A DNA stretch of 64,000 nt from an uncultured bacterium. GTDB taxonomy: Bacteria > Hydrothermota > Tepidihabitantia > Tepidihabitantales > DTDR01. Under the pieces are notes generated by a model. It saw only the letters and a program-made list of their open reading frames with translations, did not search any database and was not told where the DNA came from. The stretch covers positions 13,729 to 77,728 of the forward strand of contig CALHQW010000015.1 of the NCBI GenBank assembly GCA_938040315.1. The letters are read 5' to 3'. The first letter of the stretch is position 1. Each line of letters starts with the position of its first letter. Shown here in pieces: positions 1-38,423 of this stretch. Position numbers and translations under genes: made by a program.

Positions 1-1
1 T

Positions 2-1303: not shown

Positions 1304-2757
1304 AAAAGTACTACTTTTTAATAATTTTTTTGTATCTCTTACCTATCTTTTACTTAACTTATTTTCCTTTTGTTGACCTACCTCAGCATTTGCATTTTGC
1401 CTATGTTTTAAAAAATTTTTCTAACTATGAGGCTTATTTTGAAAAGAGATTATTTCCTATGCATAATACTTTTCATCTTTTTTTTAATACTTTTTTATCA
1501 AATTTTTTGCCTTTAGATATCACTAATAGAATTTATATTGGATTAATTATTCTTTTAACTTTCCTTTCTTTTTATTATCTCTTAAAAGTAGTCAATGGTG
1601 AGAAATCCTTTTCTCTTTTGAGTTTATTAATTGCCTATAATTATAATCTTTTTTGGGGATTTATGGGAATTGCTTTTGCTTTTCCTTTAATTATTTTTCT
1701 TTTTGCCTTAACAATAAATTTATTAAAAGGAAACAAAAAAGAGAATTTAATTATTCTTTTCCTTACTCTTCTCTTTATCCTCATTTTTCTTTGCCATTCT
1801 TTAACTTTTATTTATTCTTTTGTTAGTTATTTAATAATTATTTTTTTAAATAAAAAATCTTTTAAACTTAAACATCTTTTACCACCTTTAATTACCTTGA
1901 TATTTTTCTTTCTTCCTTGGCAAGCGCAACAATTTCAAAGAGAAGGTAGTGAACTTATCAGCCAGTTTAAAGAAAATATCTCTTTCAAAGCAATTTACCA
2001 AAATATTTTAGATTTTTGGGAAAGATTAGGAATAAAAAGCGACAACTTGATAATTTTTTTCTTTAAAATAATAACTTTATTAGGAATATTTGTTTTAATT
2101 ACCGATCGCCATCTTTTTAAAGAAAGTAAAATATTATCCACAATCTTCTTGGTCACCTTGGCTTTTTATTTCTTTTTTCCAGGAAGTTATACAGAAGCAG
2201 TATTTTTAAATGAGCGATTTGCTCCTTTACTTTTTCTTTTTTTAATTGTTTATATAAGTTTAAAAATTAAAAAATCAATTGTAAAATATATAATTTTGGC
2301 AGTATTAATAATAAATATAATTGATTTAAATCTCCGATTCTTAATGTTTGAAAAATATGCTCAAGAGTTTAAAAAAATTGTAGATAAATTAGAACCAAAT
2401 AAAAAGGTTGTGGGAATTTTCTATGATAAAAGACCAAAACCCGATCTATTTGGTTACGATATTTTTCTCCACTTTCCTTGTTATTACCAGTTAAAAAAAG
2501 GAGGTCTTATCGGTTTTTCTTTTGCCTATATCCGTTATTCACCCTTAATATTTAAAGAAAATTATCCTTTAGAAAGGATTGATGAATGGTTCCCCTATCG
2601 TTCCCTTTTCCCTTATCGTTATAAAGATTACGATTATCTTTTTATTACTGGTGAAATCAGATTGAGTGATGAAAAATATTTCCGAAAAATGACTTTAATT
2701 GATAGTATTTCTTTCTTCCGAGTTTATTCGCCAAAAAAAGAGGTTTTTAATTTTTGA
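1300..2757 (+). CDS. hypothetical polytopic membrane protein (about 10 predicted TM helices plus C-terminal soluble domain)
   Basis: ATGA overlap with the upstream ORF. Highly hydrophobic N-terminal two-thirds (FLIIFLYLLPIFY..., LIILFLTLLFILIFLCHSL...). Family not recognised. Confidence 0.4.
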   Translation: MKKYYFLIIFLYLLPIFYLTYFPFVDLPQHLHFAYVLKNFSNYEAYFEKRLFPMHNTFHLFFNTFLSNFLPLDITNRIYIGLIILLTFLSFYYLLKVVNGEKSFSLLSLLIAYNYNLFWGFMGIAFAFPLIIFLFALTINLLKGNKKENLIILFLTLLFILIFLCHSLTFIYSFVSYLIIIFLNKKSFKLKHLLPPLITLIFFFLPWQAQQFQREGSELISQFKENISFKAIYQNILDFWERLGIKSDNLIIFFFKIITLLGIFVLITDRHLFKESKILSTIFLVTLAFYFFFPGSYTEAVFLNERFAPLLFLFLIVYISLKIKKSIVKYIILAVLIINIIDLNLRFLMFEKYAQEFKKIVDKLEPNKKVVGIFYDKRPKPDLFGYDIFLHFPCYYQLKKGGLIGFSFAYIRYSPLIFKENYPLERIDEWFPYRSLFPYRYKDYDYLFITGEIRLSDEKYFRKMTLIDSISFFRVYSPKKEVFNF

Positions 2758-4215
2758 TAAAATTTCTTGTAATTCTCTATCTTCTTCTAAATAGGGTATC
2801 TTCTCTTCAATAATTTTTACAATTTTTGGTTTTTCTTTAAAATTAAGTTCTGTTAATCTTAAAATTTGACTTATACATAAAATTTCTATTGCTAAAATCG
2901 TTTTAGTATTTTCAACAATTTTCTCTAATTTTAATAAACTATTCATCCCCATACTAACAATATCCTCCTGATTAGCCGAAGTGGGTAAAGAAGTCACTGA
3001 AGCCGGATAAGAAAGGATTTTATTTTCACTTGCTAAAGCAGTTGAAATAATTTGGGGCATCATTAAACCAGAGTTTATTCCTGGCTCTTTTATCAAAAAT
3101 ATTGGCAAATCCGGATGTCTTCCCGAAGTTAAATAAAAAATCTTTCTTTCTGATAATAGAGATAGTAGAGTAATTGAAATACCTAATAAATCTGCGGCTA
3201 ATGCTAAACTGGTACCCATAAAATTTCCTCCGCTAAAAATCTCATTATCAATAATAACTGGATTGTCCGTTATGGAATTGATTTCAATTTCTAATATTTT
3301 TTGTGCAAAATCAACGGTCTCACCTATTGAACCAAAAATTTGGGGCTGACATCTTATTGAATAAGGATCTTGTAAAGCAGTTTCCTTAAAATCACAAAGA
3401 TTTAAATAATCATAAATTATCTTCGCGGTTTCAATTTGATGAGAATAAGGTTTTAATTGATGTAACCTTATATCAAACTCTTTTTTGTTGCCTTTAATCA
3501 ATAAGGTTGTTAAACCAGAAATCTCTTTTGCCAAATTAAAGATATGTTCAATATCGATCAAAAGATAACCTAGAAAGGCCGACATCATTTCAGTGCCATT
3601 AATTAAAGATAATCCTTCTTTAATATCTAAAACAAAAGGTTTTAATTTTTCTTTTTTAAACACCTCTTTTGTAGGTAATATTTTATTCTTATAAAATACC
3701 TTTCCCTTTCCTAAAAGGACTAAACCAATTTGTGCCAATGGCGATAAATCACCGGAAGCACCTACCGAACCTTTTTTTTGGACACATGGAATAATATCTT
3801 TGTTGATTAAATTTAATAAGGCATCAATTAACTCTACTCTTACTCCGGAATATCCCTTACTAAGCATATTTGCTCTTAAAAAGATTGCCAAACGGATAAT
3901 ATCTTTATTAAAATATTCACCTTCTCCTAAAGCATGAGAGACAATTAAATTATATTGTAACTTTTTTATTTCTTCTTTTGAAATTCTTTTATTTACCAAG
4001 GCACCAAAACCAGTATTCACACCATAAACTAAATTTCCTTTCTCAATTATTCTTTCTAAACTATTCCGTGCTTTAGAAATTTTGCCTTTTTTCTTTTCGC
4101 TAATTTTGACAATACTTTTAGAAGACAAAAATTTTTTAATAAATTCTAAGTTTAAATTTTCAATAGGAATTTTAATAATCATCTTCACAAACAAAGTTAA
4201 TTTTTGGATTATCAA
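2695..4215 (-). CDS. hutH: aromatic amino acid ammonia-lyase family (histidine ammonia-lyase-like, MIO cofactor)
   Basis: Signature GSVGASGDLSPLA (the Ala-Ser-Gly triad that forms MIO). Length of about 500 aa with YGVNTGFG near the N-terminus. No hutU or hutI nearby, so substrate (His, Phe or Tyr) is unresolved. Confidence 0.75.
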   Translation of the reverse strand: MIIQKLTLFVKMIIKIPIENLNLEFIKKFLSSKSIVKISEKKKGKISKARNSLERIIEKGNLVYGVNTGFGALVNKRISKEEIKKLQYNLIVSHALGEGEYFNKDIIRLAIFLRANMLSKGYSGVRVELIDALLNLINKDIIPCVQKKGSVGASGDLSPLAQIGLVLLGKGKVFYKNKILPTKEVFKKEKLKPFVLDIKEGLSLINGTEMMSAFLGYLLIDIEHIFNLAKEISGLTTLLIKGNKKEFDIRLHQLKPYSHQIETAKIIYDYLNLCDFKETALQDPYSIRCQPQIFGSIGETVDFAQKILEIEINSITDNPVIIDNEIFSGGNFMGTSLALAADLLGISITLLSLLSERKIFYLTSGRHPDLPIFLIKEPGINSGLMMPQIISTALASENKILSYPASVTSLPTSANQEDIVSMGMNSLLKLEKIVENTKTILAIEILCISQILRLTELNFKEKPKIVKIIEEKIPYLEEDRELQEILSKIKNLFFWRINSEERNTIN

Positions 4216-5233
4216 TATGACCTATCGTTTCTTTCAATGCTTCTTTCATTCGAAAGATATTCTCTTTAGTTAAATAATTAATTTTCCCTTCTTTATAAAG
4301 TCTTAAAAATTTTTTTATCGGTAAAATTTTAAATTTATATTTTTCTTTTTCCTTATATTTCGCTATCCAACAAGGAATATAACTCACTCTTTTTAAGAAA
4401 GCCGTACCATCTTTTTTATCAATAATATATTTAAGCATAATTCCTGTATCGGTATATCTTTTTCTCTGACCACAAAAGAAATTACCTAAGGAATAGGCAA
4501 CAAATACTTTTTTATCATCTATTTCAATTATTTCTACCGGTTGGATAACATGGGGATGGGAGCTAATTATCATATCAGCACCAAATTTACTAATCTCTTT
4601 TACAATCTTTTTCTGTTCGCTATTTGGAAATCTTTCGTATTCCTTACCAAAATGTAAAGCAACAATTACAAAATCACTTATTCTTTTTGCTTTTTCAATA
4701 TCCTTTTTTATTTTTTCTAAATCAATAAGGTTAACCATCCAAGGTTTGGGAATTGTTATCCCATTTGGACCATAAGTATAACTTAAAAAAGATATTTTAA
4801 TATTATCTTTCTCAAAAACATAAATCTCTTTAATTTCATCCTCGGTAATATAGGCACCAATTTGTATTAAATTATATTTTTTTAAAATAGAAGTGGTTAT
4901 TCTTAGTCCCCTTTCTCCGTAATCCAAAGTATGATTCGTTCTAAAAATTATTTTAAAACCAACTTTTTTTAATACTTCCGCAAGATTTTCGGGCGTTTTA
5001 AAACAAGGATAACCAGTATAAGGTCCAACAGTATCCAACACACCACCAAACCAACAAGTCACAACATCTGCTGAGTTTAAATAAGTTTCTAATTCTTCAA
5101 AGCAAGGATAAAAATTATAACTTTTTGTCTCTTTCTGATAGATACTTTTTAATACTGATTGATGAATAAAAATATCGCCAACAGAAATAATTCTTATCTC
5201 GTTTAAAAATAAGAATATTAATAAGAAATTCAA
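4172..5233 (-). CDS. CapA/PgsA-family metallophosphatase (poly-gamma-glutamate/capsule synthesis protein-like)
   Basis: Calcineurin-like motifs VIVALHFGKEY, ISSHPHVIQP, AYSLGNFF. N-terminal signal/TM segment. Confidence 0.6.
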   Translation of the reverse strand: MNFLLIFLFLNEIRIISVGDIFIHQSVLKSIYQKETKSYNFYPCFEELETYLNSADVVTCWFGGVLDTVGPYTGYPCFKTPENLAEVLKKVGFKIIFRTNHTLDYGERGLRITTSILKKYNLIQIGAYITEDEIKEIYVFEKDNIKISFLSYTYGPNGITIPKPWMVNLIDLEKIKKDIEKAKRISDFVIVALHFGKEYERFPNSEQKKIVKEISKFGADMIISSHPHVIQPVEIIEIDDKKVFVAYSLGNFFCGQRKRYTDTGIMLKYIIDKKDGTAFLKRVSYIPCWIAKYKEKEKYKFKILPIKKFLRLYKEGKINYLTKENIFRMKEALKETIGHIDNPKINFVCEDDY

Positions 5234-6301
5234 TTACTCGATAACCTCACCTTCCAAACTTCCTTTTGCTCTCAAATATAATATCAAACCGGAAGAAAAA
5301 TCTTTACTTAAAATATGAAGATTCTCTAAGAGAGCAACAGTACTTTTATAATCTTTATTCTCAAAATATCTTAAAGCATTCGCATAATATGCTTTCGTTT
5401 TCTCCTCAATCTTTGGTAAATTATTTGTTAACTCTTTTGCCAAATAATTCTCAATTCCCTTTTTTAATTCTAAAAGATAATCGTTCAACTTGTCGATATT
5501 AATACTAACTTCCCTTAATGCTTTTCTCTGCGCCTCTTCTTTAGAATTGCTAACACCTTTTCCTTCAGAAGAAGATATCTTACCAATAATATTTCCTTTT
5601 TTATCTTTTAGATAAATAATATATTGTCCCTTAACTGTCCAAAGAGGACCAGCAAGTGATGCTAATTTACTAACTACTTCATAAGAAGGAATACCAACAA
5701 TTTGGGCAAAATATCTTTCATTATCAACAATAAAATTATTACCTTCTAAAATTGATTTAATCTGCTCATAATAATCGGAAGAAACTCTTACTCGATAAAT
5801 CTCCTTATTTTCCTTTAAAAAATTAATAAGATTTTCTTTCTCATAAATTTTTGTCAACTCTTCATTAAGCATTTTTAAAAGTCTTTCTGATTGGATCCCA
5901 CCAAGGATATAATATTTTTTTTCTCTTTTATTCTCATATTTATCCCGAATCTCAAAATATTTATTTGCTTCATCAAGAACACTTTTAATCTCTTTTTCTA
6001 TCAAATCTTTTAAAATAAAATCAAACTCCGTTTTAACTGGTGGATTTAGTCTACTTAAATATTCACTTGTTAAGTTATAAATCAAGGCATTTAATTCTTC
6101 TTTACATTTTTCTTCAGCGTCCCTAAGAGAATTTTGGGAAACAGAAACAGTAGTAAAATAACCTTCACTACCAATTCCTAATTTCTTAGTGGGCAATTTT
6201 ACCCAATTTGGTTCTTTTGTTTGAGAAATTTTTTGAGCGCAAGAAAAATCTAACTTCTCACAAAAAATAAAAATCAAAATAATAAAAAATATTTTTCTCA
6301 T
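5234..6301 (-). CDS. hypothetical secreted lipoprotein
   Basis: Signal peptide MRKIFFIILIFIFC with Cys. Charged, coiled-coil-like mature part. Ends directly at the capA-like start. Confidence 0.45.
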   Translation of the reverse strand: MRKIFFIILIFIFCEKLDFSCAQKISQTKEPNWVKLPTKKLGIGSEGYFTTVSVSQNSLRDAEEKCKEELNALIYNLTSEYLSRLNPPVKTEFDFILKDLIEKEIKSVLDEANKYFEIRDKYENKREKKYYILGGIQSERLLKMLNEELTKIYEKENLINFLKENKEIYRVRVSSDYYEQIKSILEGNNFIVDNERYFAQIVGIPSYEVVSKLASLAGPLWTVKGQYIIYLKDKKGNIIGKISSSEGKGVSNSKEEAQRKALREVSINIDKLNDYLLELKKGIENYLAKELTNNLPKIEEKTKAYYANALRYFENKDYKSTVALLENLHILSKDFSSGLILYLRAKGSLEGEVIE

Positions 6302-6430
6302 AATTCCTCCTTAATTTCTTTGACCTTAACATTTTAAAAATATAATAAAAATTTTCAAAATGTCAACAAATGATTTTAAAGTAATTTCTCTTAAAATTGA
6401 CTTCTCCAATTTAATTATTAAAATTATTTT

Positions 6431-6907
6431 ATGAAAATTACACCTTTAGATATTAGAAGAAAGGATTTTTTAATTCGTTTTCGGGGTTATGATAAGAAGG
6501 AGGTGAAAGAATTTTTAGAAATTATTGCTCGGGAATTAGAAGAGATGATTAAAGAAAAAGATGAATTACTTAATAAAATCTCTGTTTTAGAAGAAATAGC
6601 AGCCACTTATCAAAAACAAGAGAAACTTTTACAAGAAACTTTAATGACTGTTCAAAAGCAAGCGGAAAATTTAAAAAATAATGCTCAAAAAGAAGCCGAA
6701 AACATCGTTCAAAAGGCAAAATTAGAAGCAAAGGAAATCCTGATGAAAACCCAAAAAGAAGTTGACAAATTAAGGGGAGAGTTAAACACACTAAATTCGA
6801 AAAAGAAAGTCTTCGTTGCTAATTTAAAAGGATTAATAGAAGGCTTAAATAACTTTATTAAAGAATGGGAGAAGGAAAATGAAAGAGAAAATAAAGAAGG
6901 CAGTTGA
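6431..6907 (+). CDS. divIVA: DivIVA-domain cell-division/polarity protein
   Basis: N-terminus MKITPLDIRRKDF...RGYDKKEV followed by a long coiled coil. Confidence 0.65.
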   Translation: MKITPLDIRRKDFLIRFRGYDKKEVKEFLEIIARELEEMIKEKDELLNKISVLEEIAATYQKQEKLLQETLMTVQKQAENLKNNAQKEAENIVQKAKLEAKEILMKTQKEVDKLRGELNTLNSKKKVFVANLKGLIEGLNNFIKEWEKENERENKEGS

Positions 6908-7697
6908 GTTTATTAAAGAAGAATGCGATTTCAAACCTAAAATTGGCATTATTTTAGGGACTGGCTTAGGAAGGCTTGCTGAGGAGATTGAGGTTGAAAA
7001 GGTTATACCCTATTCAAAAATTCCCAATTTTCCAATGCCAACAGTAGTTACTCATGAAGGAAAACTTATTTTTGGTTATGTGAATAAGAAGAAAGTTTGT
7101 GCTTTTCAAGGTCGTTTTCATTATTATGAAGGTTATTCAATGTTTGAAATTACTTTGCCGGTAAGAGTAATGAAAGAATTAGGTGTAGAGATTCTTATTG
7201 TTTCTAATGCCAGTGGTGGTTTAAATCCGTTATTCTCACCGGGCGATATTATGATAATTACTGATCATATTAATTTCCTTTGTGATAACCCTTTAAGGGG
7301 TTTAATCGATCCTGATTTTGGACCCCGTTTTCCAGATATGTATAATTGTTATGATAAAAATTTAATTAAACTTGCTGAAGAAGTTGCTTTGGATTTAAAA
7401 ATTTCGGTAAAAAAGGGAGTTTATATTGCTGTGATGGGACCCAATTTAGAGACCGCTGCTGAATATCGAGCCTTCAGAATTTTAGGTGCTGATGCTGTTG
7501 GAATGTCTACAGTTCCAGAAGTAATTGTCGCTAGGCAAGCGGGAATAAAGGTAATTGGCTTCTCAGTAATAACTGATATGGGACTACCAGATGCTTTGAA
7601 ACCAGTTAACTTAGTAGAAATATTGAAAGTTGCTAAAGAAACCGAACCAAAATTAACTATGTTAATAAAAGAACTTATCAAAAGGTTGAATGTATAA
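6879..7697 (+). CDS. purine nucleoside phosphorylase (PNP/MTAP family, trimeric type)
   Basis: GIILGTGLG, SNASGGLN, GMSTVPEVIVARQAGIKVIGFSVITD. Confidence 0.8.
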   Translation: MKEKIKKAVEFIKEECDFKPKIGIILGTGLGRLAEEIEVEKVIPYSKIPNFPMPTVVTHEGKLIFGYVNKKKVCAFQGRFHYYEGYSMFEITLPVRVMKELGVEILIVSNASGGLNPLFSPGDIMIITDHINFLCDNPLRGLIDPDFGPRFPDMYNCYDKNLIKLAEEVALDLKISVKKGVYIAVMGPNLETAAEYRAFRILGADAVGMSTVPEVIVARQAGIKVIGFSVITDMGLPDALKPVNLVEILKVAKETEPKLTMLIKELIKRLNV

Positions 7698-8427
7698 GAG
7701 ACTTTTTATATTTCTTCTATTTTTTATTCTTAGTTGTACCAAAAGAAATATGGTAGAACTAAAAGAGAAAAATGTAGAAGAGTTATTTAAAACCGGACTT
7801 AAATTAATGAACGAAAGTAAATATGAGAGGGCAATAAAGTATTTTAATAAAATTGTTAACGAATACCCTCACTCTGGTTATCTTATTAAATCTCAGTTTC
7901 TTTTAGCCGAGTGTTATTTTCAAAAAAAGGATTATGAAAAGGCTAAATTGGAATACGAATTTTATATGAAAACTTTTCCTTATGCCGAAGATTACGAAAA
8001 TGCTTTTTACAAAAGTTTAATTTGCAATTTAAAGTTATTTAAAAAATCACAAAGAATCTCAATCTTAGAGGAATTGAAAGAAAATTTTTTAGCCTTTAAG
8101 AAAAGTTATCCCGAAGGGCAATTTTCTAAAGAAATCCAAAGTTATGTAAATACTATTGATTCCTTAATAGCCAAAAATTTTTTTGATATTGCCTTTTTAT
8201 ATTACAAAAATGGTGAGTTAAATCCAGCAAAAATCTATTTTGAATATGTAATAAATAATTTTCCTAATACTTCTTTTAAATTTCATTCTTTATATTATTT
8301 AGCCGAAATTTCTTATAAAAATAATGAGAGAGAAAAAGTAGAAAATTATCTAAAAGAGATTATTAAAGAAGGAAAGGATAATTTGAAATTGAAAGCCCAA
8401 AAATTATTAACAAAATGGAAAAAATAG
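7690..8427 (+). CDS. TPR-repeat lipoprotein, BamD/YfiO-like outer-membrane assembly factor
   Basis: Lipobox FFILSC. TPR-like helical repeats (AECYFQKKDYEKA...). Size and position are typical of BamD. Confidence 0.45.
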   Translation: MYKRLFIFLLFFILSCTKRNMVELKEKNVEELFKTGLKLMNESKYERAIKYFNKIVNEYPHSGYLIKSQFLLAECYFQKKDYEKAKLEYEFYMKTFPYAEDYENAFYKSLICNLKLFKKSQRISILEELKENFLAFKKSYPEGQFSKEIQSYVNTIDSLIAKNFFDIAFLYYKNGELNPAKIYFEYVINNFPNTSFKFHSLYYLAEISYKNNEREKVENYLKEIIKEGKDNLKLKAQKLLTKWKK

Positions 8428-13396: not shown

Positions 13397-13876
13397 ATGA
13401 TTTTTTATTCAATAAATGAAGTATTAGAAATGGCTATCCAAATTGAAAAAAGTGGTTATCAGTTTTATTTAAAATCAAAAGAAAAAACTAATGATAAGAA
13501 ATTAAAAGAACTTTTTAACTTCTTATCTATTGAAGAATTAAGGCACAGGGAAACCTTTGAAGGAATTAAAAACAAATTAAAAACAACTCCCTATACTTTA
13601 CCTTATAACTGGGAAGAAGCCAAATTATACTTAAAAGCAATTACCGACTCCCATTTTTTTAAAGGAGAAGATAAAGTTTTAAATCTAATGGAAAAAACCG
13701 AAAATGAAAAGGAATTAATCAATTTGGCAATTGCTTTTGAAAAAGAAACTTTAATTTTCTATTATGAAATATTAAATCTGGTTGGGGAAGAAGAAAAATC
13801 AACAGTTTTAAAATTAATTCAAGAAGAAAAAAACCATATTAAAAAATTAGAAACAATAAAGGAAGAAAAGATATGA
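13397..13876 (+). CDS. erythrin/rubrerythrin-like diiron ferritin-like protein (paralog 1 of 3)
   Basis: Four-helix-bundle ligand pattern E(IEKSG)...EELRHRE...E(FEKET)...EEKNHIKKLE. No rubredoxin domain. Confidence 0.6.
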   Translation: MIFYSINEVLEMAIQIEKSGYQFYLKSKEKTNDKKLKELFNFLSIEELRHRETFEGIKNKLKTTPYTLPYNWEEAKLYLKAITDSHFFKGEDKVLNLMEKTENEKELINLAIAFEKETLIFYYEILNLVGEEEKSTVLKLIQEEKNHIKKLETIKEEKI

Positions 13877-14376
13877 ATGAAATTTTTAAATTGGCGATCG
13901 ACTTAGAAAAAGAAGCTTTGCTTTCCTATCTTCGTTTTGGACACCAAATAAAAGATTTAAGAGGTAAAGACCTTTTTATCCGTTTAGCAATGGACGAATT
14001 TGAACATATCGAAATCTTAGAGAAAGAATCCCAATATTTTGAGAAAGAGAAAGGATTTAAAGAATTAGAAATTCCTCTAACGGAAATTGAAAAAATTGTA
14101 GATAATTTAAAACCCTTGCTACCAAAAGAAAAAAAAATATCTGATTTAAAGGAGTTAAATATTTTACAAATGGCCTTAACATTAGAGAAAAAAAGTATCG
14201 ATTTTTATCAAAACCAAGAAAAAGCAAGCAAAGAAGAAGTATCTAAGAAGATCTGGAAAAGATTAAAAGAAGTTGAAGAAGGTCATTATCGACTTATTCA
14301 AGCAGAAATTGATTATTTAACAAAAACTGGTTTTTGGTTTGATTTTCGGGAATTTAGTTTAGAAGTGGAGAAGTAA
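13873..14376 (+). CDS. erythrin/rubrerythrin-like diiron ferritin-like protein (paralog 2 of 3)
   Basis: AIDLEKEA...DEFEHIEILE...ALTLEKKSIDFY...EEGHYRLIQAE. ATGA overlap with paralog 1. Confidence 0.6.
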   Translation: MNEIFKLAIDLEKEALLSYLRFGHQIKDLRGKDLFIRLAMDEFEHIEILEKESQYFEKEKGFKELEIPLTEIEKIVDNLKPLLPKEKKISDLKELNILQMALTLEKKSIDFYQNQEKASKEEVSKKIWKRLKEVEEGHYRLIQAEIDYLTKTGFWFDFREFSLEVEK

Positions 14377-14394
14377 TTTGAAAAGGAGGAATTT

Positions 14395-14886
14395 ATGGAA
14401 GAAACTTTGACTTCTTTAGAAATATTACAAAAAGCAATAAAATCAGAGGTCGAAGCCTTCCAATTTTATAATAAACTGCAAGAGGTAGTTGAAAATAAAG
14501 TTTTAAAAAAGAAGTTGAATTTTTTAAAAAGGGAAGAAAAAAAACATGAGAAATTATTAAGAAATATTTTCAAAAATCAGTTTCCTAAAGAAAAAATAAA
14601 ATTGCCCAAAAAAGGCTTTACTCCTTTACCAACAATTGAGAAAATAGAAAAATTATCTTTAGAATCCCTTTTGGAAGCAGCAATGGAAGCCGAAGAGATT
14701 TCTGAAAAATTCTATCGGGAAAATTCAATATTAATTAATGATGAAAATAGCAAAAGATTATTAATTTATCTATCTTCAATGGAGAAATCACACTACCAAA
14801 TTTTGAAAACAGAATACGATTTATTAACTAGTTTTACTTCTTACGAGGCTTATAAAAAATTCTCCTTAGAGCATTTAGGACCATGA
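14395..14886 (+). CDS. erythrin/rubrerythrin-like diiron ferritin-like protein (paralog 3 of 3)
   Basis: AIKSEVEAFQFY...REEKKHEKLL...AMEAEEISEKFY...MEKSHYQILKTE. RBS aaaggaggaatttATG. Confidence 0.6.
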   Translation: MEETLTSLEILQKAIKSEVEAFQFYNKLQEVVENKVLKKKLNFLKREEKKHEKLLRNIFKNQFPKEKIKLPKKGFTPLPTIEKIEKLSLESLLEAAMEAEEISEKFYRENSILINDENSKRLLIYLSSMEKSHYQILKTEYDLLTSFTSYEAYKKFSLEHLGP

Positions 14887-16046
14887 AAAAAATATATCTT
14901 GATCATCAAGCTACGACGCCTATCCATCCTGAAGTTCTTTCTTTAATGGAGAATATTCAAAAAGAAATATTTGGCAATCCCCAAAGTTCTCATTATTTCG
15001 GTTTTGAAGCTAAAAAACTGTTAGAAGAGGCAAGAGAAAATATTGCTTCCCTTTTAAATGTTTCTCCTTCGGAAATTTATTTCACTTCCTCTGGGGCTGA
15101 AAGTAATAATTGGGCAATCAAGAAGGTTGCCTTTGCTAACCAAAATAAAGGCAATCATATCATTATTTCCGCAATCGAACATCCTTCAGTAATTCAACCA
15201 GCAAAAAGATTAGAAAAATTGGGGTTTGAAATCACCTATTTGCCAGTTGATAAATATGGTACCATTGATTTAGAAGAGTTAAAAAAGAAAATAAAAAAAG
15301 AAACAATTCTTATTTCTATAATGCATGCCAATTATGAAGTTGGTACAATTGAACCAATCAAAGAAATTGCCGAAATTGCTAAAGAAAATAAAATTATTTT
15401 TCATTCGGACGGTGTGGCAGCAGCAGGTCAATTAAAAATTGATTTAAAAGAACTCGGTGTGGATCTTTATACGATTTCCTCCCATACCTTCTACGGTCCC
15501 AAAGGAGTAGCATTATTATATATCAAAAGGGGAACAAAAATTCAACCATTAATAGAAGGCGGTATTCAAGAAAATAATCGTCGAGCAGGAACCGAAAATT
15601 TGATTGGTATTATTGGTATGGCAAAGGCTTATGAAATTGCCATAAAAGAAATGGAAGAAAGAAAAAATAAGTTAGAAAAATTAAGAAATAGGTTGATAGA
15701 AGAATTACCTAAAAAAATTGATAATATTTATTTAACCGGTCATCCCCAAAATCGTCTACCTAATCATGCTAGTTTTTGTGTTGAGTATGTAGAAGGTGAA
15801 GCAATGGTTTTATATTTAAATCAATATGGAATCGCCTGTGCCTCTGGTTCTGCCTGTTCTTCTAAACAATTAAAGGCTTCTCATGTCCTTTTGGCAATGG
15901 GTATTTCACCAGTCTTAGCCCAGGGTTCTGTTATTTTCACTTTAGGGATCAATAACACTGAAGAAGACATTGACTATCTTTTAGAAGTATTTCCACCAAT
16001 TGTAAAAAGATTAAGAGAAATCTCACCTTTATATAAAATTTCTTGA
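14883..16046 (+). CDS. cysteine desulfurase (IscS/NifS class V aminotransferase)
   Basis: SSHTFYGPKGVALLY (PLP lysine), catalytic-loop Cys in ASGSACSS. ATGA overlap with ferritin-like paralog 3. Confidence 0.85.
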   Translation: MKKIYLDHQATTPIHPEVLSLMENIQKEIFGNPQSSHYFGFEAKKLLEEARENIASLLNVSPSEIYFTSSGAESNNWAIKKVAFANQNKGNHIIISAIEHPSVIQPAKRLEKLGFEITYLPVDKYGTIDLEELKKKIKKETILISIMHANYEVGTIEPIKEIAEIAKENKIIFHSDGVAAAGQLKIDLKELGVDLYTISSHTFYGPKGVALLYIKRGTKIQPLIEGGIQENNRRAGTENLIGIIGMAKAYEIAIKEMEERKNKLEKLRNRLIEELPKKIDNIYLTGHPQNRLPNHASFCVEYVEGEAMVLYLNQYGIACASGSACSSKQLKASHVLLAMGISPVLAQGSVIFTLGINNTEEDIDYLLEVFPPIVKRLREISPLYKIS

Positions 16047-16073
16047 ATCAACTTTATATAAAATTTCTTGAAT
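16027..16073. repeat. perfect tandem duplication of a 22-mer ctttatataaaatttcttgaat (25-bp period) spanning the desulfurase stop codon
   Basis: Copy 1 about 16027-16048, a caa spacer, copy 2 about 16052-16073. Read directly. Confidence 0.7.
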
Positions 16074-16207
16074 TAAAAATTATTTTAAATTATAATAAAA
16101 TAAAATATGAAAAAAGAGAAATTATTTTTCTTTATCGATATTTCTAATTTTATTTTTTTAATATTTTTCTATGTTTTAAAAAACAAACATCAAAGAGGAG
16201 ATGAACG

Positions 16208-16729
16208 ATGAAATTAAAAAATTTAATTTTTATCTTAGTTTTATTTATTTTTATTCCTACCCAAGAAAAAAGGGATACTTTAAAATCTTATAAAAAAGCA
16301 CCGAGCTTTTCTCTTTATAATATTAATAAAGAAAAAATTTATCTTGATTCTCTACTAAATAAAGGACCAATTTTTATTAGTTTTTGGGCGTTGTGGTGTA
16401 AACTTTGTATTCAAGAACTTGATGCTTTTAAAAAAATATATGACCAATATGAAACCTTAGGGCTTAAAGTTTTAGCAATTTCAGAGGACGGACCAAGAGC
16501 AGTAAATAATATAAAATCTTTTGTCAAAGGGAAAAAATGGAAATATGAAATTTTATTAGACCCGGACGGAAAAATAAGAGAACTCTTTGGTGTTGGTTCA
16601 ACTCTGCCAACAAGTTTTATCCTTGATAAAGAAGGAAATATCCGTTTGATTTCGCGAGGTTATAAAAAAGGTGATGAAAAAAAATTTGTAAAAGTTATTG
16701 AAGAGATAATTAATGAAGCGAAAGAGTAA
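16208..16729 (+). CDS. secreted TlpA/redoxin-family thiol-disulfide oxidoreductase (thioredoxin fold, CxxC)
   Basis: Signal peptide MKLKNLIFILVLFIF. Active site FWALWCKLC. RBS aagaggag 8 nt upstream. Confidence 0.65.
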   Translation: MKLKNLIFILVLFIFIPTQEKRDTLKSYKKAPSFSLYNINKEKIYLDSLLNKGPIFISFWALWCKLCIQELDAFKKIYDQYETLGLKVLAISEDGPRAVNNIKSFVKGKKWKYEILLDPDGKIRELFGVGSTLPTSFILDKEGNIRLISRGYKKGDEKKFVKVIEEIINEAKE

Positions 16730-18179
16730 ATTTGTTTTATTTATTCTTCTCTTCTTTTATCTTTATTCCCAAGAAGAAACACCGATTGAAAAAAAGTTAA
16801 ACCTTTCTGGCGAAATAAAAGGAGAGTATTGGCTTTGGACAAAAGAAAATAAAGATAAAAGTTTTAAATTTTCCGACCATTTTGAAGGAAAATTCCGTTT
16901 TTTAATCAACTATGAAAACATTTATTTACGAACCGGTATTTTTCTTTATCAACCAAGTTTACCTAAGAAATCTTTGAAAGAATATTATTATAATTTTGAA
17001 TATTGCCATCCCCAAGCAGAATTTTTAATAGGTAATTTTTATCAGGTTTTTGGTCGGGGTCTTACTTTTCGTTCTTATTTTAATGAAGACTTTCGTTATG
17101 ATAAAGTTTTATTTGGTGGTAGGGCTATCCTCCATATTTTTAAATCTGATATTCTTCTCTTTGCTGGAAAAATGAAAAATATTATCTTTCAAGAAAATAA
17201 ATACCAATATGAAAATGATACTACCGATCAATTAAGGGGTGGAGAAATCGTTATCTATCCTTTTCCCCACTTAGAAATTGGTGGTCGTTATATAAGATTA
17301 AATAAAGAAAAAGATATAACACCTCGAGCTTTTGCAGAAATATTTGGACCAAGTATTTCTTTTACTTATAATTTTTTTGATCTATATTATGAATTTTGTG
17401 AAAAACTTTCTACCCGAGAAGTGCTTGGTGGCAGAAAAAAAGGATACGGTCATTATTTAGTAACTTCTTTTACTTTTACTGGCTTCGGCCTCAGTTTAGA
17501 AGGAATGAAATATGATAGCATCGATTTTGGTGGTGAAGGATATCGCTATAATGATGTACCGACACCAAGTAGAGAGGGAATATCAATTAATCGGGGAAGA
17601 GACGAAAAAGGAGGTAGTATTTCCTTAAATTTCACACCTTTTGATTTCTTAAATTATGATGGTAGTTACGGGTACTTACAAACTTATAAAAAAGATAAAT
17701 ATCTTAAAGAACTCATTAATAAAATTAATTTTAAAAAGAATGAAGATTTTAATAATACCTTTATTTTTGAATACCTCCAGAAAAAAGGGATAGAAATAAA
17801 AGTAGAGTTAACAGAGGAGTTAAAATTTATTAATGAAACTAAATTGTCCTTTAATAATCATACCTTTAATTTAGAGATACCTTTAAATTTTGTTTCTGAT
17901 GATACTTTGAAATACAAAGATTTTGGAGTAATTTTTGAATATCAAAACAATCCCTATTTTACATTAACTATGAATTATCAAAAAACAACTACAAAGATTC
18001 CTAAATATGATTATGAAGATAAATGGTTATTATTTGAAGGGACTTTTTTTATAACCCAAAATATAACTTGGCGAATAAGAGTTGGGCAAGAAAGAGGTGG
18101 ACTTATTTGTTCCGGTGGTGTCTGTCGTTATGAAGCACCTTTTAATGGAATGAAAATTTCTCTACAAGCGAGATTTTGA
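16713..18179 (+). CDS. hypothetical outer-membrane beta-barrel protein
   Basis: Signal peptide MKRKSKFVLFILLFFYLYSQE. Alternating aromatic/polar beta-strand pattern throughout. C-terminal ...SLQARF (terminal Phe, OMP-like). 17-nt overlap with the redoxin gene. Confidence 0.4.
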   Translation: MKRKSKFVLFILLFFYLYSQEETPIEKKLNLSGEIKGEYWLWTKENKDKSFKFSDHFEGKFRFLINYENIYLRTGIFLYQPSLPKKSLKEYYYNFEYCHPQAEFLIGNFYQVFGRGLTFRSYFNEDFRYDKVLFGGRAILHIFKSDILLFAGKMKNIIFQENKYQYENDTTDQLRGGEIVIYPFPHLEIGGRYIRLNKEKDITPRAFAEIFGPSISFTYNFFDLYYEFCEKLSTREVLGGRKKGYGHYLVTSFTFTGFGLSLEGMKYDSIDFGGEGYRYNDVPTPSREGISINRGRDEKGGSISLNFTPFDFLNYDGSYGYLQTYKKDKYLKELINKINFKKNEDFNNTFIFEYLQKKGIEIKVELTEELKFINETKLSFNNHTFNLEIPLNFVSDDTLKYKDFGVIFEYQNNPYFTLTMNYQKTTTKIPKYDYEDKWLLFEGTFFITQNITWRIRVGQERGGLICSGGVCRYEAPFNGMKISLQARF

Positions 18180-18313
18180 TGAGAAAATATCTCTTTTTTA
18201 TTTCTTTAGTTATTGGCGTTATTTTCTTAATTATAGCATTAAGATCAGAACAGATTAAAGAAGTATTTAATACTGGCATCTTGCTTTGCCTTTCTTGTAT
18301 TGGTTTAGGATGA
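18179..18313 (+). CDS. 44-aa single-TM membrane peptide with C-terminal CxxC (not in the ORF track)
   Basis: ATG shares a base with the barrel gene stop (TGATG), and its TGA overlaps the ATG of the downstream polyferredoxin (ATGA). Translation MRKYLFFISLVIGVIFLIIALRSEQIKEVFNTGILLCLSCIGLG. No strong RBS. Confidence 0.35.
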   Translation: MRKYLFFISLVIGVIFLIIALRSEQIKEVFNTGILLCLSCIGLG

Positions 18314-19269
18314 GACCCTTTAGAATTTCCCAAATAATTTTTACAATATTAATTAACAGTTATATTTTAGTATTCTTTCAAAAAACTTTAATTTATACTG
18401 GTTATTTAAAGAGTTTTTTAGTGCCAATATTAAATTGTTGGTCAGCACCAACTACTTGGTTTTCTTGTCCCTTAGGTGCCTATCAACATTTTATAATAAT
18501 TAAAGATTTTCCTTTTTATGTACTTGGTCTATTTTTAATAATCGGTGCTTTTATTGGTAGAATGGCTTGTGGCTGGTTATGTCCTTTTGGACTTTTTCAA
18601 GATCTTCTTTTTAAAATAACAAAGAAAAAAATCTCCCTTCCCCAACTTGCTCCTTTATTTACAATTATACTATTTCTATTCTCTTATCTTTTTATCTGGC
18701 TTAAATTCAATTATCTTTCTTTAACTATCAAAATTTTAATTATCTTAATCTCTACAATTATTGGTTTTCTTTTAGATATTTTTTTAAAAATCCGTATAAA
18801 AATTTTTGATCTTACTTTTCTAAAATATTTTTTTCTTTTATTTTTAGCAACTTTTATTGTTTTTTTTACTAATGAACCCTGGTTTTGTAAAGTTTGCCCC
18901 CAAGGTACCTTAGAAGCCGGTGTTCCTTTAATATTATACGACCCCGAAAATAGTTTAAAGACGATGGCTGGTTTATTTTTCTACTTCAAAATTTTAATAT
19001 TTATCATTATTTTTATTTTAGCAATTTTTATAAAAAGAATATTCTGTAAACTTATCTGTCCGATTGGCGCAATCTATTCTTTCTTCAATAAAATAAGCCT
19101 CTTTCATTTAAAAGTTGATAAAGAAAAATGTGGTAAATGTAATATTTGTGTAAAAGTTTGTCCAACTGATATAAATGTCTACGAGAATGCCAATCAAACT
19201 GATTGTATAAGATGTTTGGAATGCTATTATCAATGCCCCAAAAAAGTAATTAAATTAAAATTTTCTTAA
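18310..19269 (+). CDS. NapH/MauN/NosR-type membrane polyferredoxin (4 CX3CP motifs plus two 4Fe-4S ferredoxin motifs)
   Basis: CPLGAYQ, CGWLCPFGLFQD, CKVCPQGTLEAG, CKLICPIGAIYS, then CGKCNICVKVCP and CIRCLECYYQCP. Multiple TM helices. Start placed at MRPF (ATGA coupling); the track start is 18286. Confidence 0.6.
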   Translation: MRPFRISQIIFTILINSYILVFFQKTLIYTGYLKSFLVPILNCWSAPTTWFSCPLGAYQHFIIIKDFPFYVLGLFLIIGAFIGRMACGWLCPFGLFQDLLFKITKKKISLPQLAPLFTIILFLFSYLFIWLKFNYLSLTIKILIILISTIIGFLLDIFLKIRIKIFDLTFLKYFFLLFLATFIVFFTNEPWFCKVCPQGTLEAGVPLILYDPENSLKTMAGLFFYFKILIFIIIFILAIFIKRIFCKLICPIGAIYSFFNKISLFHLKVDKEKCGKCNICVKVCPTDINVYENANQTDCIRCLECYYQCPKKVIKLKFS

Positions 19270-33295: not shown

Positions 33296-33368
33296 GCGCC
33301 TGTAGCTCAGTGGATAGAGCGGCGGACTCCGGATCCGCAGGTCGCGCGTTCAAATCGCGTCAGGCGCT
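33296..33368 (+). tRNA. tRNA-Arg (anticodon CCG)
   Basis: gcgcctg ta gctcagtggatagagc g gcgga ctCCGga tccgc aggtc gcgcg ttcaaat cgcgt caggcgc t. Perfect 7-bp acceptor stem, anticodon loop CTCCGGA, T-loop TTCAAAT. CCA is not encoded. Confidence 0.85.
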
Positions 33369-37170: not shown

Positions 37171-37183
37171 TTTCTCCTCCTTT

Positions 37184-38422: not shown

Positions 38423-38423
38423 A

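Follow-up and report, generated by a model that had tools for sequence, protein, structure and literature searches.

A strongly conserved redoxin, outer-membrane barrel, micropeptide and polyferredoxin cassette in uncultured bacteria of the WOR-3 group

Eight adjacent open reading frames, all on the forward strand, lie at positions 13397-19269 of the stretch of DNA analyzed here (64,000 nucleotides from an uncultured bacterium, hereafter the window). The first-pass annotation had described six to eight genes in two tightly coupled blocks, and had read them as one module, joining an iron-storage and Fe-S donor block to an envelope redox block. Its observation is confirmed, all eight ORFs being real, correctly positioned and connected by the junctions and overlaps it had described, and its interpretation is partly supported. 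Block 1 starts 15 nt after ffh and contains ATGA overlaps at 13873 and 14883; after a gap of 161 nt, the redoxin gene opens block 2, where it overlaps the barrel gene by 17 nt, and the following junctions are TGATG (18177-18181, barrel/micropeptide) and ATGA (18310-18313, micropeptide/polyferredoxin). Since sequence searches found homologues for all proteins of both blocks, and codon changes in the micropeptide are mostly synonymous, the features of this region, as judged from sequence, exceed chance.

The first three genes of block 1 (13397-13876, 13873-14376 and 14395-14886) encode erythrin-like di-iron four-helix proteins, the first being of the rubrerythrin family without a rubredoxin domain. 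They score 41, 31.3 and 68.1 bits against PF02915, all above the Pfam Rubrerythrin gathering score of 22.8 bits; each carries its full pair of di-iron ExxH motifs (residues 47 and 144, 42 and 135, 48 and 130, respectively) and no Cys. Such a row of three erythrin paralogues distinguishes the block from erythrin/rubrerythrin-family systems. The fourth gene, at 14883-16046, encodes an IscS/NifS-like protein with a class-V aminotransferase fold (Aminotran_5, 277 bits), scoring above the cut-off of the NCBIfam IscS-subfamily model NF002806 (316 bits, cut-off 304) and below that of the NifS model TIGR03402 (508 bits, cut-off 531). By profile scores, the erythrin-like and class-V aminotransferase assignments hold at the superfamily level. 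The designation of the latter protein as an IscS cysteine desulfurase stands as to family, and needs correcting as to the active site: when it is aligned with IscS of E. coli and relatives, SSHT replaces SGHK, the PLP Schiff-base lysine being substituted by Thr (codon ACC, 15486-15488), while the active-site Cys loop is retained. With the catalytic lysine absent, the proposed role as Fe-S donor is not upheld; no IscU/NifU gene adjoins this one. A similar case is Archaeoglobus fulgidus IscS, where the Cys loop is kept and the PLP lysine is replaced by Asp rather than by Thr; that protein is inactive as a desulfurase and serves as donor of a Cys ligand (PMC7585200). An Aminotran_5 gene adjoins homologues of erythrin-like protein 3 in two other loci, L097 and L098, and in the latter two erythrin-like genes and the Aminotran_5 gene lie beside genes for rubredoxin, flavodiiron protein, ferritin, SOD and desulfoferrodoxin. 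To judge from sequence, block 1 (unit A, 13397-16046) is probably an oxidative-stress defence or Fe-S maintenance unit.

The joining of the two blocks into one module is not borne out, block 2 travelling without block 1. Locus L016, whose proteins are 73-88% identical, retains block 2 together with the sucCD/kor genes that follow it, while its upstream DNA is unrelated and holds nothing resembling ffh, ferritins or NifS; block 2 is likewise found without block 1 in L003, L017 and about 60 other loci, and the two units are adjacent in the closest relatives only. The redoxin gene is moreover preceded by a sigma-70-type promoter-like element of its own, TTGAAT-N17-TATAAT (16068-16096, forward strand), which matches the consensus and is conserved in L001 and L016 as TTGA[AT]T-N17-TATAAT. 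The different upstream DNA of L016, the many loci carrying block 2 alone and this conserved element are the reasons for considering the two units separate: the best explanation is that they are independent, block 2 (unit B) being expressed from a putative promoter. A 25-nt tandem duplication (16023-16072) takes in both the stop codon of the IscS-like gene and the -35-like hexamer.

The four genes of block 2 (16208-19269) make up a cassette encoding a ResA/TlpA-type redoxin, a DUF6029 barrel, a transmembrane (TM) micropeptide and a NapH-type polyferredoxin; it recurs, strongly conserved, in dozens of uncultured bacteria of the WOR-3 group and was previously uncharacterized. The annotation knew of no characterized system of this kind, and our literature search likewise found no such system and no paper describing the cassette. 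Its synteny is kept in many relatives, ranging over WOR-3, Stahlbacteria, TA06 and Latescibacterota: a redoxin gene lies 5' of DUF6029 in 68 of 73 loci, and a Fer4_5 gene lies 3' of it in 68 of the 76 loci with enough downstream sequence. Gene order and overlaps hold at identities as low as about 30% and in several phyla, both flanks being variable. Two subtypes can be distinguished: type 1 (34 loci) combines a WCxxC redoxin with a CLxC peptide and a short polyferredoxin, and type 2 (26 loci) a [PAS]CxNC redoxin with a FAxQI peptide, a long polyferredoxin and lipA. This co-variation may simply reflect two clades. In L014 a gene for a GltD-like NAD(P)-binding Fe-S flavoprotein overlaps the polyferredoxin 3' end, and in 15 type-1 loci the polyferredoxin gene is followed by one for a homologue of that flavoprotein; other downstream neighbors (lipA, enolase, sucC) are housekeeping genes, which speaks against the relay proposed below.

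The redoxin (16208-16729) is a secreted thioredoxin-fold protein of the AhpC-TSA/Redoxin type (PF00578, 86.5 bits; PF08534, 55 bits) with the motif WCKLCIQE, and its CxxC is retained in the flanking redoxins of related loci. The earlier TlpA-like assignment is correct at the superfamily level (TlpA/ResA-like), the nearest solved relatives being ResA, StoA and extracytoplasmic thioredoxins; it carries neither a lipobox nor a surface-sorting signal. Redoxins of the ResA/StoA class work as reductants and are supplied by an electron transporter in the membrane; the cassette encodes no transporter of that type.

The next gene (16713-18179) encodes a DUF6029 protein (86.5 bits, cut-off 27). The beta-rich protein of 488 residues had been proposed to be an outer-membrane barrel, and the structural model confidently predicts one, unusually large, with about 24 strands, no plug domain and a C-terminal Phe, resembling neither a generic porin nor a soluble protein. 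The structures matching it best are those of 24-strand usher pores rather than of AlgE or Wzi. In contrast to usher pores (FimD, PapC), MtrB and AlgE/Wzi, the window barrel has neither plug nor periplasmic usher domains, and its vicinity is free of pilus, cytochrome and polysaccharide genes; instead it features a constant redoxin partner and a CxGGxCR hairpin, whose Cys pair (C466/C471, in GGLxCSGGVCR) is invariant across all 85 loci. Strand parity in the predicted secondary structure probably places this pair at an extracellular hairpin tip, where it would be beyond the reach of a periplasmic redoxin. The redoxin-barrel pair survives where the polyferredoxin is absent, and more distant DUF6029 genes still adjoin genes for thioredoxin-fold proteins, being found beside Omp28, BACON and DUF1223 proteins (thioredoxin-like or surface-type).

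The micropeptide gene (18179-18313) is a conserved ORF encoding 44 residues with a single TM segment, predicted N-in/C-out; the chain terminates in CLSCIGLG, and not in CLSC as the annotation had it. A micropeptide ORF is found between barrel and polyferredoxin genes in all 60 loci having both, and the last 22 codons of the window ORF show, against two relatives, 8-9 synonymous and 2 non-synonymous changes. The CLxC motif is predicted to face outward. Since type-2 peptides have no Cys pair, the CxxC cannot be essential to a mechanism shared by both types. The peptide resembles the CD1871A-family CXXC proteins (NF040920), for which we found no paper or assigned function in the literature searched, in its single TM helix, its C-terminal C-L-x-C-[IM]-G-[LI] and its position directly 5' of a Fer4_5 protein gene; the match is weak, however, and below the cut-off (18.7 vs 32 bits). 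A Clostridiales counterpart scores 63.5 bits, its gene lying directly 5' of one for a 36%-identical polyferredoxin, while three other peptides from the cassette or Fibrobacteria (two with CLxC, from L003 and L053) gave no score with this model. In Clostridiales and Fibrobacteria, peptide and polyferredoxin are found together with no barrel, and they therefore behave as a sub-module.

The polyferredoxin (18310-19269) is a polytopic membrane protein of the NapH type, for which 6 TM segments are predicted; it has three Fer4_5 stretches and a Fer4 domain. The NapH-like assignment holds at the superfamily level: hhalign aligns the protein to E. coli NapH with probability 98.5 (E 2.8e-15), and the score against the NapH family model is 55 bits, with a cut-off of 213. 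Members of the NapH/MauN family serve periplasmic redox partners. With this family, to which NosR, NirI and RdhC/PceC are added for their membrane modules, the window protein shares a homologous membrane core with two cytoplasmic-side CX3CP motifs and a C-terminal domain with two [4Fe-4S] motifs. Of the four CX3CP motifs claimed, two are true (CGWLCP and CKLICP), the others being CX2CP (CKVCP) and CX9CP (C43...C53-P). The two CX3CP and both CxxCxxCxxxCP [4Fe-4S] motifs are predicted to lie inside, and the pairs C43/C53 and C193/C196 outside, by hydropathy and charge analysis (K+R amount to 24 in inside loops vs 5 in outside loops). These additional pairs, in predicted periplasmic loops, set the protein apart from NapH, which in the alignment has D-P and N-P where the loop Cys stand; the window copy also has two extra TM segments and is paired with a TM micropeptide. 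The motifs are kept in 65-68 of 68 loci, and the extra pairs in 68 of 68 cassette copies. Structure searches found no solved structure resembling the membrane domain, and loop 1 was modelled at pLDDT below 50. The role of the CX3CP motif is not established in NapH, NosR or RdhC (PMC5928378); in contrast to those systems, the cassette protein has no NapG, NapA, NosZ or dehalogenase partner, the neighbors being a thiol redoxin and a barrel.

We tentatively propose, as the best available reading though one somewhat short of probable, that the cassette is an Fe-S-driven relay of reductant from the cytoplasm to the envelope, with unit A separate. The NapH-type protein and the micropeptide would form an inner-membrane complex, taking electrons on the cytoplasmic side, through the two [4Fe-4S] clusters and two CX3CP pairs, from ferredoxin or from NAD(P)H via the GltD-like flavoprotein encoded directly downstream in many relatives. 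The complex would reduce the Cys of the periplasmic face (C43/C53, C193/C196 and the peptide CLSC), which would in turn keep the redoxin reduced; the latter may act at or with the barrel, on its invariant Cys pair or on a substrate passing through. The scheme resembles the pathways from CcdA/DsbD to TlpA/ResA/CcmG, in which a membrane protein is likewise needed to import reducing equivalents and the terminal component is a WCxxC reductase of the thioredoxin fold, either secreted or anchored. It differs from them in that the NapH-type Fe-S protein and micropeptide would replace the CcdA/DsbD thiol transporter, and in that client genes (cytochrome c maturation, Sco, Msr) are absent from the cassette.

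It is possible, if unlikely, that the cassette serves instead envelope redox chemistry and trafficking of iron or copper: the polyferredoxin, akin to NapH, CcoG and Mad6, would act together with the Cys peptide as a metal-binding site or as a metal reductase spanning the membrane, metal species would enter through the barrel, and the redoxin would maintain metal-binding cysteines in reduced form, which is what TlpA does for Sco and CoxB. In line with this, M-C-L-S-C-M is a frequent reading among type-1 peptides, locus L001, which is syntenic, contains a Zip transporter gene a few genes downstream, and the polyferredoxin matches the CcoG-type domain Fer4_18 (30 bits). On the other hand, the CcoG equivalog model gives only 25 bits (cut-off 317), the flanking Met are not conserved (LLCLSCIG in the window), Cys is absent from type-2 peptides, the barrel lacks a plug of the TonB type, and in none of about 70 loci does the cassette include a metalloenzyme, metal transporter or chaperone gene. 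Also favorable is a Fibrobacteria homologue, P0153 (34% identical, 95% coverage), found with a CxxC peptide of its own in a magnetosome-like cluster, among PDZ, magnetochrome, CDF and Nitro_FeMo-Co genes, as is the finding that mutants of mad6, encoding a NapH-domain protein, make fewer magnetite crystals (PMC4287615). Mad6 of Desulfovibrio magneticus RS-1 is, like the window protein, of the NapH type without a nitrate reductase partner, a likeness drawn via P0153; in contrast, the window has no mam/mad genes, and magnetosome clusters have no redoxin or DUF6029 gene. The cassette may have a link to iron, the setting of P0153 being the lone hint towards it.

The invariance of the barrel Cys pair and the tight coupling of redoxin and barrel genes, which stay paired where the polyferredoxin is missing, would also suit a flow in the opposite direction, which we regard as improbable. 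In such an oxidative folding pathway for an anaerobe, the redoxin would form or isomerize the disulfide of the barrel, and perhaps of other envelope proteins, and the NapH-like protein would reoxidize the redoxin, passing electrons to cytoplasmic Fe-S or NAD(P)+ as a quinone-independent analogue of DsbB/VKOR. By sequence, however, the redoxin groups with the reducing ResA, StoA and CcmG and not with DsbA; from established redox potentials, transfer from a disulfide-forming thiol couple to [4Fe-4S] or NAD(P)+ is uphill, and a four-gene system dedicated to one structural disulfide would be unusual. Quite improbable, too, is a delivery of reductant to the cell surface, by analogy with MtrB, which sheaths MtrA: the redoxin, accommodated or exported by the plug-less barrel, would bring reducing equivalents to external substrates such as S0/polysulfide, disulfides or oxidants. 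The neighbors of distant DUF6029 genes and the probable outward position of the barrel Cys pair agree with it, but fold similarity is generic to large barrels, and nothing indicates entry into the barrel of a redoxin devoid of surface-sorting signals. Least of all do we expect the barrel to be a polysaccharide-export or general diffusion porin, adjacent to unrelated genes by lineage history and without any joint system, as the HHpred similarity of plug-less Wzi-like barrels to DUF6029 (PMC9603273), the presence in L003 of a sugar-transferase gene two genes 3' of the cassette and the surrounding housekeeping genes might suggest, because OPX, Wzx/Wzy and glycosyltransferase genes are all absent from the cassette, usher pores match the barrel best in structure, the subtypes co-vary, and gene order outlasts the variable flanks.

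All eight ORFs of the first-pass annotation were recovered by ORF calling on the + strand, where it had placed them, and inspection of the junctions agreed with the overlaps and gaps it described. They sit within a long co-directional array of housekeeping genes, which in L001, a syntenic locus from a close relative, comprises bamD-like, yajC, def, fmt, PASTA-domain, rpe and ffh genes on the upstream side, and sucCD and korDABG on the downstream side. The window is AT-rich (25–34% G+C), and close homologues of its proteins carry names from candidate division WOR-3. Three erythrin-like genes and an IscS-like gene (13397–16046) are followed by a cassette of four genes, coding for a redoxin (16208–16729), a DUF6029 barrel (16713–18179), a 44-aa transmembrane (TM) micropeptide (18179–18313) and a NapH-type polyferredoxin, or Fer4_5 protein (18310–19269).

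One genome per GTDB species was scanned with the barrel motif [VTI]CSGGVCR[FYW]: 354 stretches encoding relatives were found and 80 loci were kept, mainly from WOR-3, but also from Stahlbacteria, TA06, Latescibacterota and Coatesbacteria. Six-frame ORFs of all loci were searched with the window proteins, and counts were taken over non-redundant loci. Where 1.5 kb or more of downstream sequence was available (76 loci), the Fer4_5 gene comes directly after the barrel gene in 68, and the redoxin gene directly precedes the barrel gene in 68 of the 73 loci with sufficient upstream sequence; a micropeptide ORF occupies the gap between barrel and polyferredoxin in all 60 loci having both flanking genes. 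Synteny of the cassette and conservation of its micropeptide in relatives, on both of which the first-pass proposal depended, are thus borne out. Exceptions to the gene order mostly involve the most divergent barrels (at most 26% identity), along with two loci devoid of a polyferredoxin gene (L027 and L050) and one devoid of a redoxin gene (L094). No fusions joining cassette components were found among the 120 polyferredoxin matches or the 150 DUF6029 representatives listed.

All eight genes are kept in the close relatives L001 and L002, where the barrel is 79% identical. In L016, a third close locus whose proteins are 73–88% identical, the four-gene block is followed in the same order by sucC, sucD, the kor genes and eight more, while the 7 kb upstream of the redoxin gene contain no match to any window ORF; a rearrangement breakpoint must therefore fall within the 161-nt gap at 16047–16207. 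At 44% identity (L003 and L017) and at lower values, the cassette is found in many different contexts, without ferritin-like or IscS-like genes. The proposal that the two blocks make up a single iron/redox envelope module has to be abandoned, since L016 and the distant loci carry the second without the first: the blocks are, as judged from this comparison, separate units. A promoter-like element, identified by its match to the consensus TTGA[AT]T-N17-TATAAT, lies inside the gap at 16068–16096, and is kept in L001 and also in L016, despite the differing upstream DNA there. No Rfam match to a riboswitch or other RNA was found in the gap at E ≤ 1. A 25-nt tandem duplication (16023–16072, 96% identical) spans the stop codon of the IscS-like gene and yields the −35-like TTGAAT; the leader, from the promoter-like element to the redoxin start, measures about 110 nt in the window vs about 25–30 nt in L001 and L016. 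A 34-aa ORF at 16108–16211, with an ATGA overlap with the redoxin start, is missing from L001, L016 and L003, and was rejected as a chance ORF in AT-rich DNA.

The redoxin has the thioredoxin fold of the AhpC-TSA/Redoxin families (PF00578, 86.5 bits; PF08534, 55.1 bits), the motif WCKLC and a hydrophobic N-terminus predicted to act as an export signal, with no lipobox. Its closest PDB relatives are ResA, StoA, DsbE-like proteins and extracytoplasmic thioredoxins, and fold, WCxxC active site and export signal place it in the ResA/TlpA/DsbE-type group. Scores on the curated models stay below the cut-offs for orthology to any named member: 85.8 bits vs 170 for ResA (NF002854), 37.1 vs 123 for DsbE (TIGR00385) and 21.9 vs 230 for TlpA (NF047696). 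Redoxins of the ResA/StoA/DsbE type belong to the reducing class, and normally receive electrons from CcdA or DsbD. No CcdA/DsbD-type gene was found among the cassette neighbours examined, in 17-kb loci that represent less than 1% of each genome.

The barrel is assigned to DUF6029 (PF19494) with 86.5 bits, vs a gathering score of 27. Its alignment features the motif GGLxCSGGVCRxExPF, present in 85 of 85 loci, with C466 and C471 invariant. The two cysteines flank the turn of the last hairpin and, because the last strand of the barrel must end in the periplasm, this turn, located by secondary structure, is probably on the outer side. The family is of modest size and single-domain: a DUF6029 profile search retrieved 1,894 clusters at 50% identity with E ≤ 1e-3, 351 of them with E ≤ 1e-30. 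Distant members not accompanied by a polyferredoxin gene still adjoin thioredoxin-fold or Omp28/BACON/DUF1223 proteins; the persistence of the thioredoxin-fold neighbour suggests that the redoxin–barrel pair is the older core. Two distant DUF6029 genes, in L009 (4556–8682) and L079 (4307–9182), whose genomes are probably Bacteroidota-like, have as neighbours Omp28/BACON proteins, an AhpC-TSA redoxin, a DUF1223+Omp28 protein of 860 aa and an Omp28 protein that weakly matches thioredoxin, so that the link between barrel and thioredoxin fold reaches beyond WOR-3. The barrel differs from the chaperone-usher pores FimD and PapC, which are 24-strand barrels that have a plug domain and N- and C-terminal periplasmic domains and whose genes accompany those for a chaperone and pilins, and from MtrB-type porin-cytochrome conduits, where a large barrel is encoded with multihaem cytochromes.

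In the polyferredoxin, profile searches recognized three Fer4_5 stretches, two ferredoxin motifs and a NapH-like C-terminus. Homology to E. coli NapH is well supported (hhalign probability 98.5), and the two proteins share the membrane core, two CX3CP motifs (here C87/C91-P and C246/C250-P) and two CxxCxxCxxxCP motifs; E. coli NapH, however, features D-P and N-P where the present family has C53-P and C193-x-x-C196-P. The first-pass annotation had counted four CX3CP and two ferredoxin motifs: the latter are confirmed, but only two of the four cysteine motifs are true CX3CP. In an alignment of 30 homologues (A2), C43, C53-P, C87/C91-P, C196-P, C246/C250-P and both CxxCxxCxxxC are invariant, and C193 nearly so. 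The motifs are kept in all 68 complete cassette copies, the only exception being the cyt-1 CX3CP, found as the strict pattern in 65 of the 68. Curated NapH/MauN cut-offs are missed by far (TIGR02163, 55.2 bits vs 213; NF007013, 53.9 vs 234), only the C-terminal third of the protein aligning to these models. It does not correspond to CcoG/FixG/RdxA either, with 25.1 bits vs 316.7 on TIGR02745, only 30.3 bits for the CcoG-type domain Fer4_18 and no FixG_C match. Neither a NapG/MauM-type periplasmic ferredoxin nor a nap, mau or nos enzyme was found near the window cassette, in L001 or in the downstream genes examined.

Hydropathy indicates six TM segments, with 24 Lys+Arg in the loops assigned to the cytoplasm vs 5 in the others. 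On these grounds C43/C53 and C193/C196 are predicted to lie on the outside, with the clusters and CX3CP pairs on the cytoplasmic side. The AF2 model is of moderate quality (pLDDT 75), loop 1 being poorly predicted, and no solved structure resembling the membrane domain was found. The CX3CP motifs have no assigned role even in NapH, NosR and RdhC (PMC5928378).

The micropeptide does contain the CLSC motif previously noted, but terminates in CLSCIGLG rather than in CLSC itself. Its score on NF040920, the CD1871A family CXXC model, is 18.7 bits, below the cut-off of 32. It nevertheless has the features of the family, as we derived them from the model name and the loci and not from any publication: a length of about 40–50 aa, a single TM helix, CxxC at the C-terminal end and an adjoining Fer4_5 protein. 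A Clostridiales peptide, in locus L012, is a clear member (63.5 bits). Two MAGs, one of Clostridiales and one of Fibrobacteria, carry the peptide–polyferredoxin pair with no redoxin or barrel. The exact 44-aa sequence is absent from the protein collection searched; over its last 22 codons, comparison of the window with L016 or L001 gives 8–9 synonymous and 2 non-synonymous codon differences. The consensus of window-type (type-1) peptides has a positive N-terminus, a single TM segment and an acidic tail, and an N-in, C-out orientation is therefore predicted, which would place their CLxC motif in the periplasm.

Cassettes fall into two subtypes, whose components co-vary without exception among 60 loci. 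Type 1 (34 loci, including the window) combines a WCxxC redoxin, a peptide of about 45 aa ending in ...CL[SAE]C[IM]G[LI]x and a short polyferredoxin. Type 2 (26 loci) combines a [PAS]CxNC redoxin, a TM peptide of about 36 aa with no Cys pair, ending in ...[HR][RG]FA[AS]QI, and a long polyferredoxin of 420–580 aa with extra TM segments, only one of the 26 being under 350 aa. Loci listed as type 2 are L007, L020, L024–L025, L032, L034, L036–L038, L041–L042, L044–L046, L056, L066, L068–L069, L071–L076, L081, L083–L084 and L093. Immediately downstream of type-2 cassettes lies a bona fide lipoyl synthase gene, lipA; since it follows a single clade, its position is attributed to inherited synteny, and a functional partnership was discarded.

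In 15 of the 34 type-1 loci the polyferredoxin gene is followed by a gene for a GltD-like NAD(P)-binding Fe-S flavoprotein, which in L014 (5779–7365) overlaps its 3' end. These proteins, of 528–532 aa, contain Fer4_20 and Pyr_redox_2, and their best NCBIfam match is PRK12771 ("NAD(P)-binding protein"), below cut-off; they are candidate electron donors. No equivalent was found in the window. Elsewhere the cassette is followed by enolase, sucC or nothing, and the idea of a shared third partner was dropped, the GltD-like gene alone being suggestive. In L031 (10662–13271), as well as in L023, L047, L052, L091 and L088, the downstream ORFs are about 790–870 aa long, with an N-terminal hydrophobic extension and Enolase_C (residues about 264–553) before Enolase_N (about 674–786), in reversed order. 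Either faulty ORF calling or a gene rearrangement could account for them; other loci have a normal 426–436-aa enolase gene at this position.

The simplest account of the cassette is a relay carrying reductant from inside to outside, because the redoxin is of the reducing type, no CcdA or DsbD is encoded nearby, the constant partner is an Fe-S membrane protein which has gained outward-facing Cys pairs, and the gene for an NAD(P)H-linked Fe-S flavoprotein follows in many genomes. Cytoplasmic ferredoxin or NAD(P)H would supply electrons to the [4Fe-4S] clusters and CX3CP pairs; these would pass them to the outward Cys pairs and the CxxC of the peptide, which would in turn reduce the secreted redoxin, and this would act on a target at or beyond the barrel. 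Anatomy and conservation are observed, while each transfer step is one that we infer, and we hold the relay tentatively, at somewhat less than an even chance. Against it, the Cys pair is missing from type-2 peptides, the co-variation of the subtypes could merely mirror two clades, and the Cys pair of the barrel may be out of periplasmic reach. The more elaborate version, in which a NapH-type protein, remodelled by outward-facing Cys pairs and a micropeptide subunit, uses electrons of cytoplasmic ferredoxin or NAD(P)H to make periplasmic dithiols by an Fe-S-driven transmembrane pathway free of DsbD/CcdA, and feeds a dedicated redoxin working through a plug-less barrel, possibly to the cell surface, is doubtful when taken as a whole.

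Metal redox or trafficking at the envelope, which we consider unlikely, draws on the Fibrobacteria MAG (JADFYW010000004.1; L013, 3812–8869), where a 34%-identical polyferredoxin, accompanied by a CxxC peptide of 46 aa, is surrounded by Nitro_FeMo-Co, PDZ, magnetochrome-domain and two CDF genes. The surroundings resemble a magnetosome (mam/mad) cluster, the polyferredoxin probably being Mad6-like; Mad6, a NapH-domain protein, is required for a normal number of magnetite crystals (PMC4287615). The reverse of the relay, an oxidative folding pathway serving the disulfide of the barrel, is opposed by both redoxin class and thermodynamics, and seems quite improbable. We give even less credence to delivery of reductant through the barrel to the cell surface. 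A polysaccharide or general porin with unrelated neighbours is the least probable reading of all; the one paper found to mention DUF6029 (PMC9603273) presents it speculatively as a polysaccharide porin.

A literature search found nothing on the cassette, in line with the earlier statement that no characterised system of this kind was known: CD1871A returned no papers, and no relevant literature was found on a NapH-like protein together with a thiol-disulfide oxidoreductase. In NCBI annotation the parts are labelled only as "DUF6029 family protein" and "4Fe-4S binding protein". At the superfamily level all parts can be placed in known families, and each stays below the curated cut-offs of characterised equivalogs; it is their combination, a NapH-type Fe-S membrane protein with a TlpA-type redoxin and the other parts, that is undescribed in the literature found. 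The mechanism being conjectural, the cassette would not count as categorically new. Known periplasmic reducing pathways rely on CcdA and DsbD as thiol transporters, and NapH-type proteins are known as partners of respiratory enzymes. Conserved in dozens of species-level genomes, the cassette offers a testable system for three open problems, namely the roles of CX3CP/Fer4_5 membrane modules, of DUF6029 barrels and of CD1871A-type peptides, and also has implications for what Mad6-type magnetosome proteins do. Should the Fe-S-driven pathway through redoxin and barrel prove true, it would represent a new route by which anaerobic, mostly uncultured phyla export reducing power, and the first biochemical role for DUF6029 and for the widespread CD1871A-peptide/Fer4_5 pair; were the cassette an ordinary client-specific redoxin operon, the gain would be smaller, a better annotation of four WOR-3 gene families.

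As to the first block, the three erythrin-like proteins score 41, 31.3 and 68.1 bits on PF02915, vs a gathering score of 22.8, and each has two ExxH motifs, a complete di-iron ligand set. They are called erythrin-like because both a rubredoxin domain and Cys residues are missing; among NCBIfam models, that of the MbfA ferritin-like domain matches them best, far below cut-off. The IscS-like protein (PF00266, 277 bits) exceeds the cut-off of NF002806 (316.2 vs 304), falls slightly under that of NifS TIGR03402 (507.8 vs 530.75) and can be aligned over its full length to E. coli IscS at 44% identity. The families originally proposed were thus upheld by profile searches, with the reservation that the IscS-like protein lacks the catalytic lysine. 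The Cys loop (SGSAC) is kept, C325 being invariant in alignment A5, but in the region of 15483–15488 the protein reads SSHT vs SGHK, with Thr at the position of E. coli IscS K206, which forms the PLP Schiff base. Thr is encoded by ACC in the window and by ACT in both L001 and L097, a further related locus: synonymous codons indicate that the Lys-to-Thr substitution is fixed in this lineage. Lysine is kept in E. coli and in the 41%-identical homologue of another locus, L098. The A. fulgidus IscS, with Asp at the same site, has no activity as a desulfurase, and is regarded as supplying a Cys ligand in cluster assembly (PMC7585200); by analogy, the window protein may behave similarly. No IscU/NifU gene adjoins the IscS-like gene.

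The pairing of erythrin-like and Aminotran_5 genes recurs in L098, at 40% identity. Here, positions 1–8223 make up an oxidative-stress island, containing rubredoxin, a flavodiiron protein, ferritin, AhpC-TSA, Zip, Fe-SOD, desulfoferrodoxin and AP endonuclease, along with two erythrin-like proteins and the NifS-like protein with lysine. This neighbourhood points to a role of the first block in oxidative-stress defence or Fe-S maintenance, and not in the envelope cassette.

Elsewhere in the 64-kb window, a tRNA at 33296–33368 on the + strand is the sole Rfam match above gathering score, and a long run of co-directional ORFs lies on the − strand at 36064–48346.
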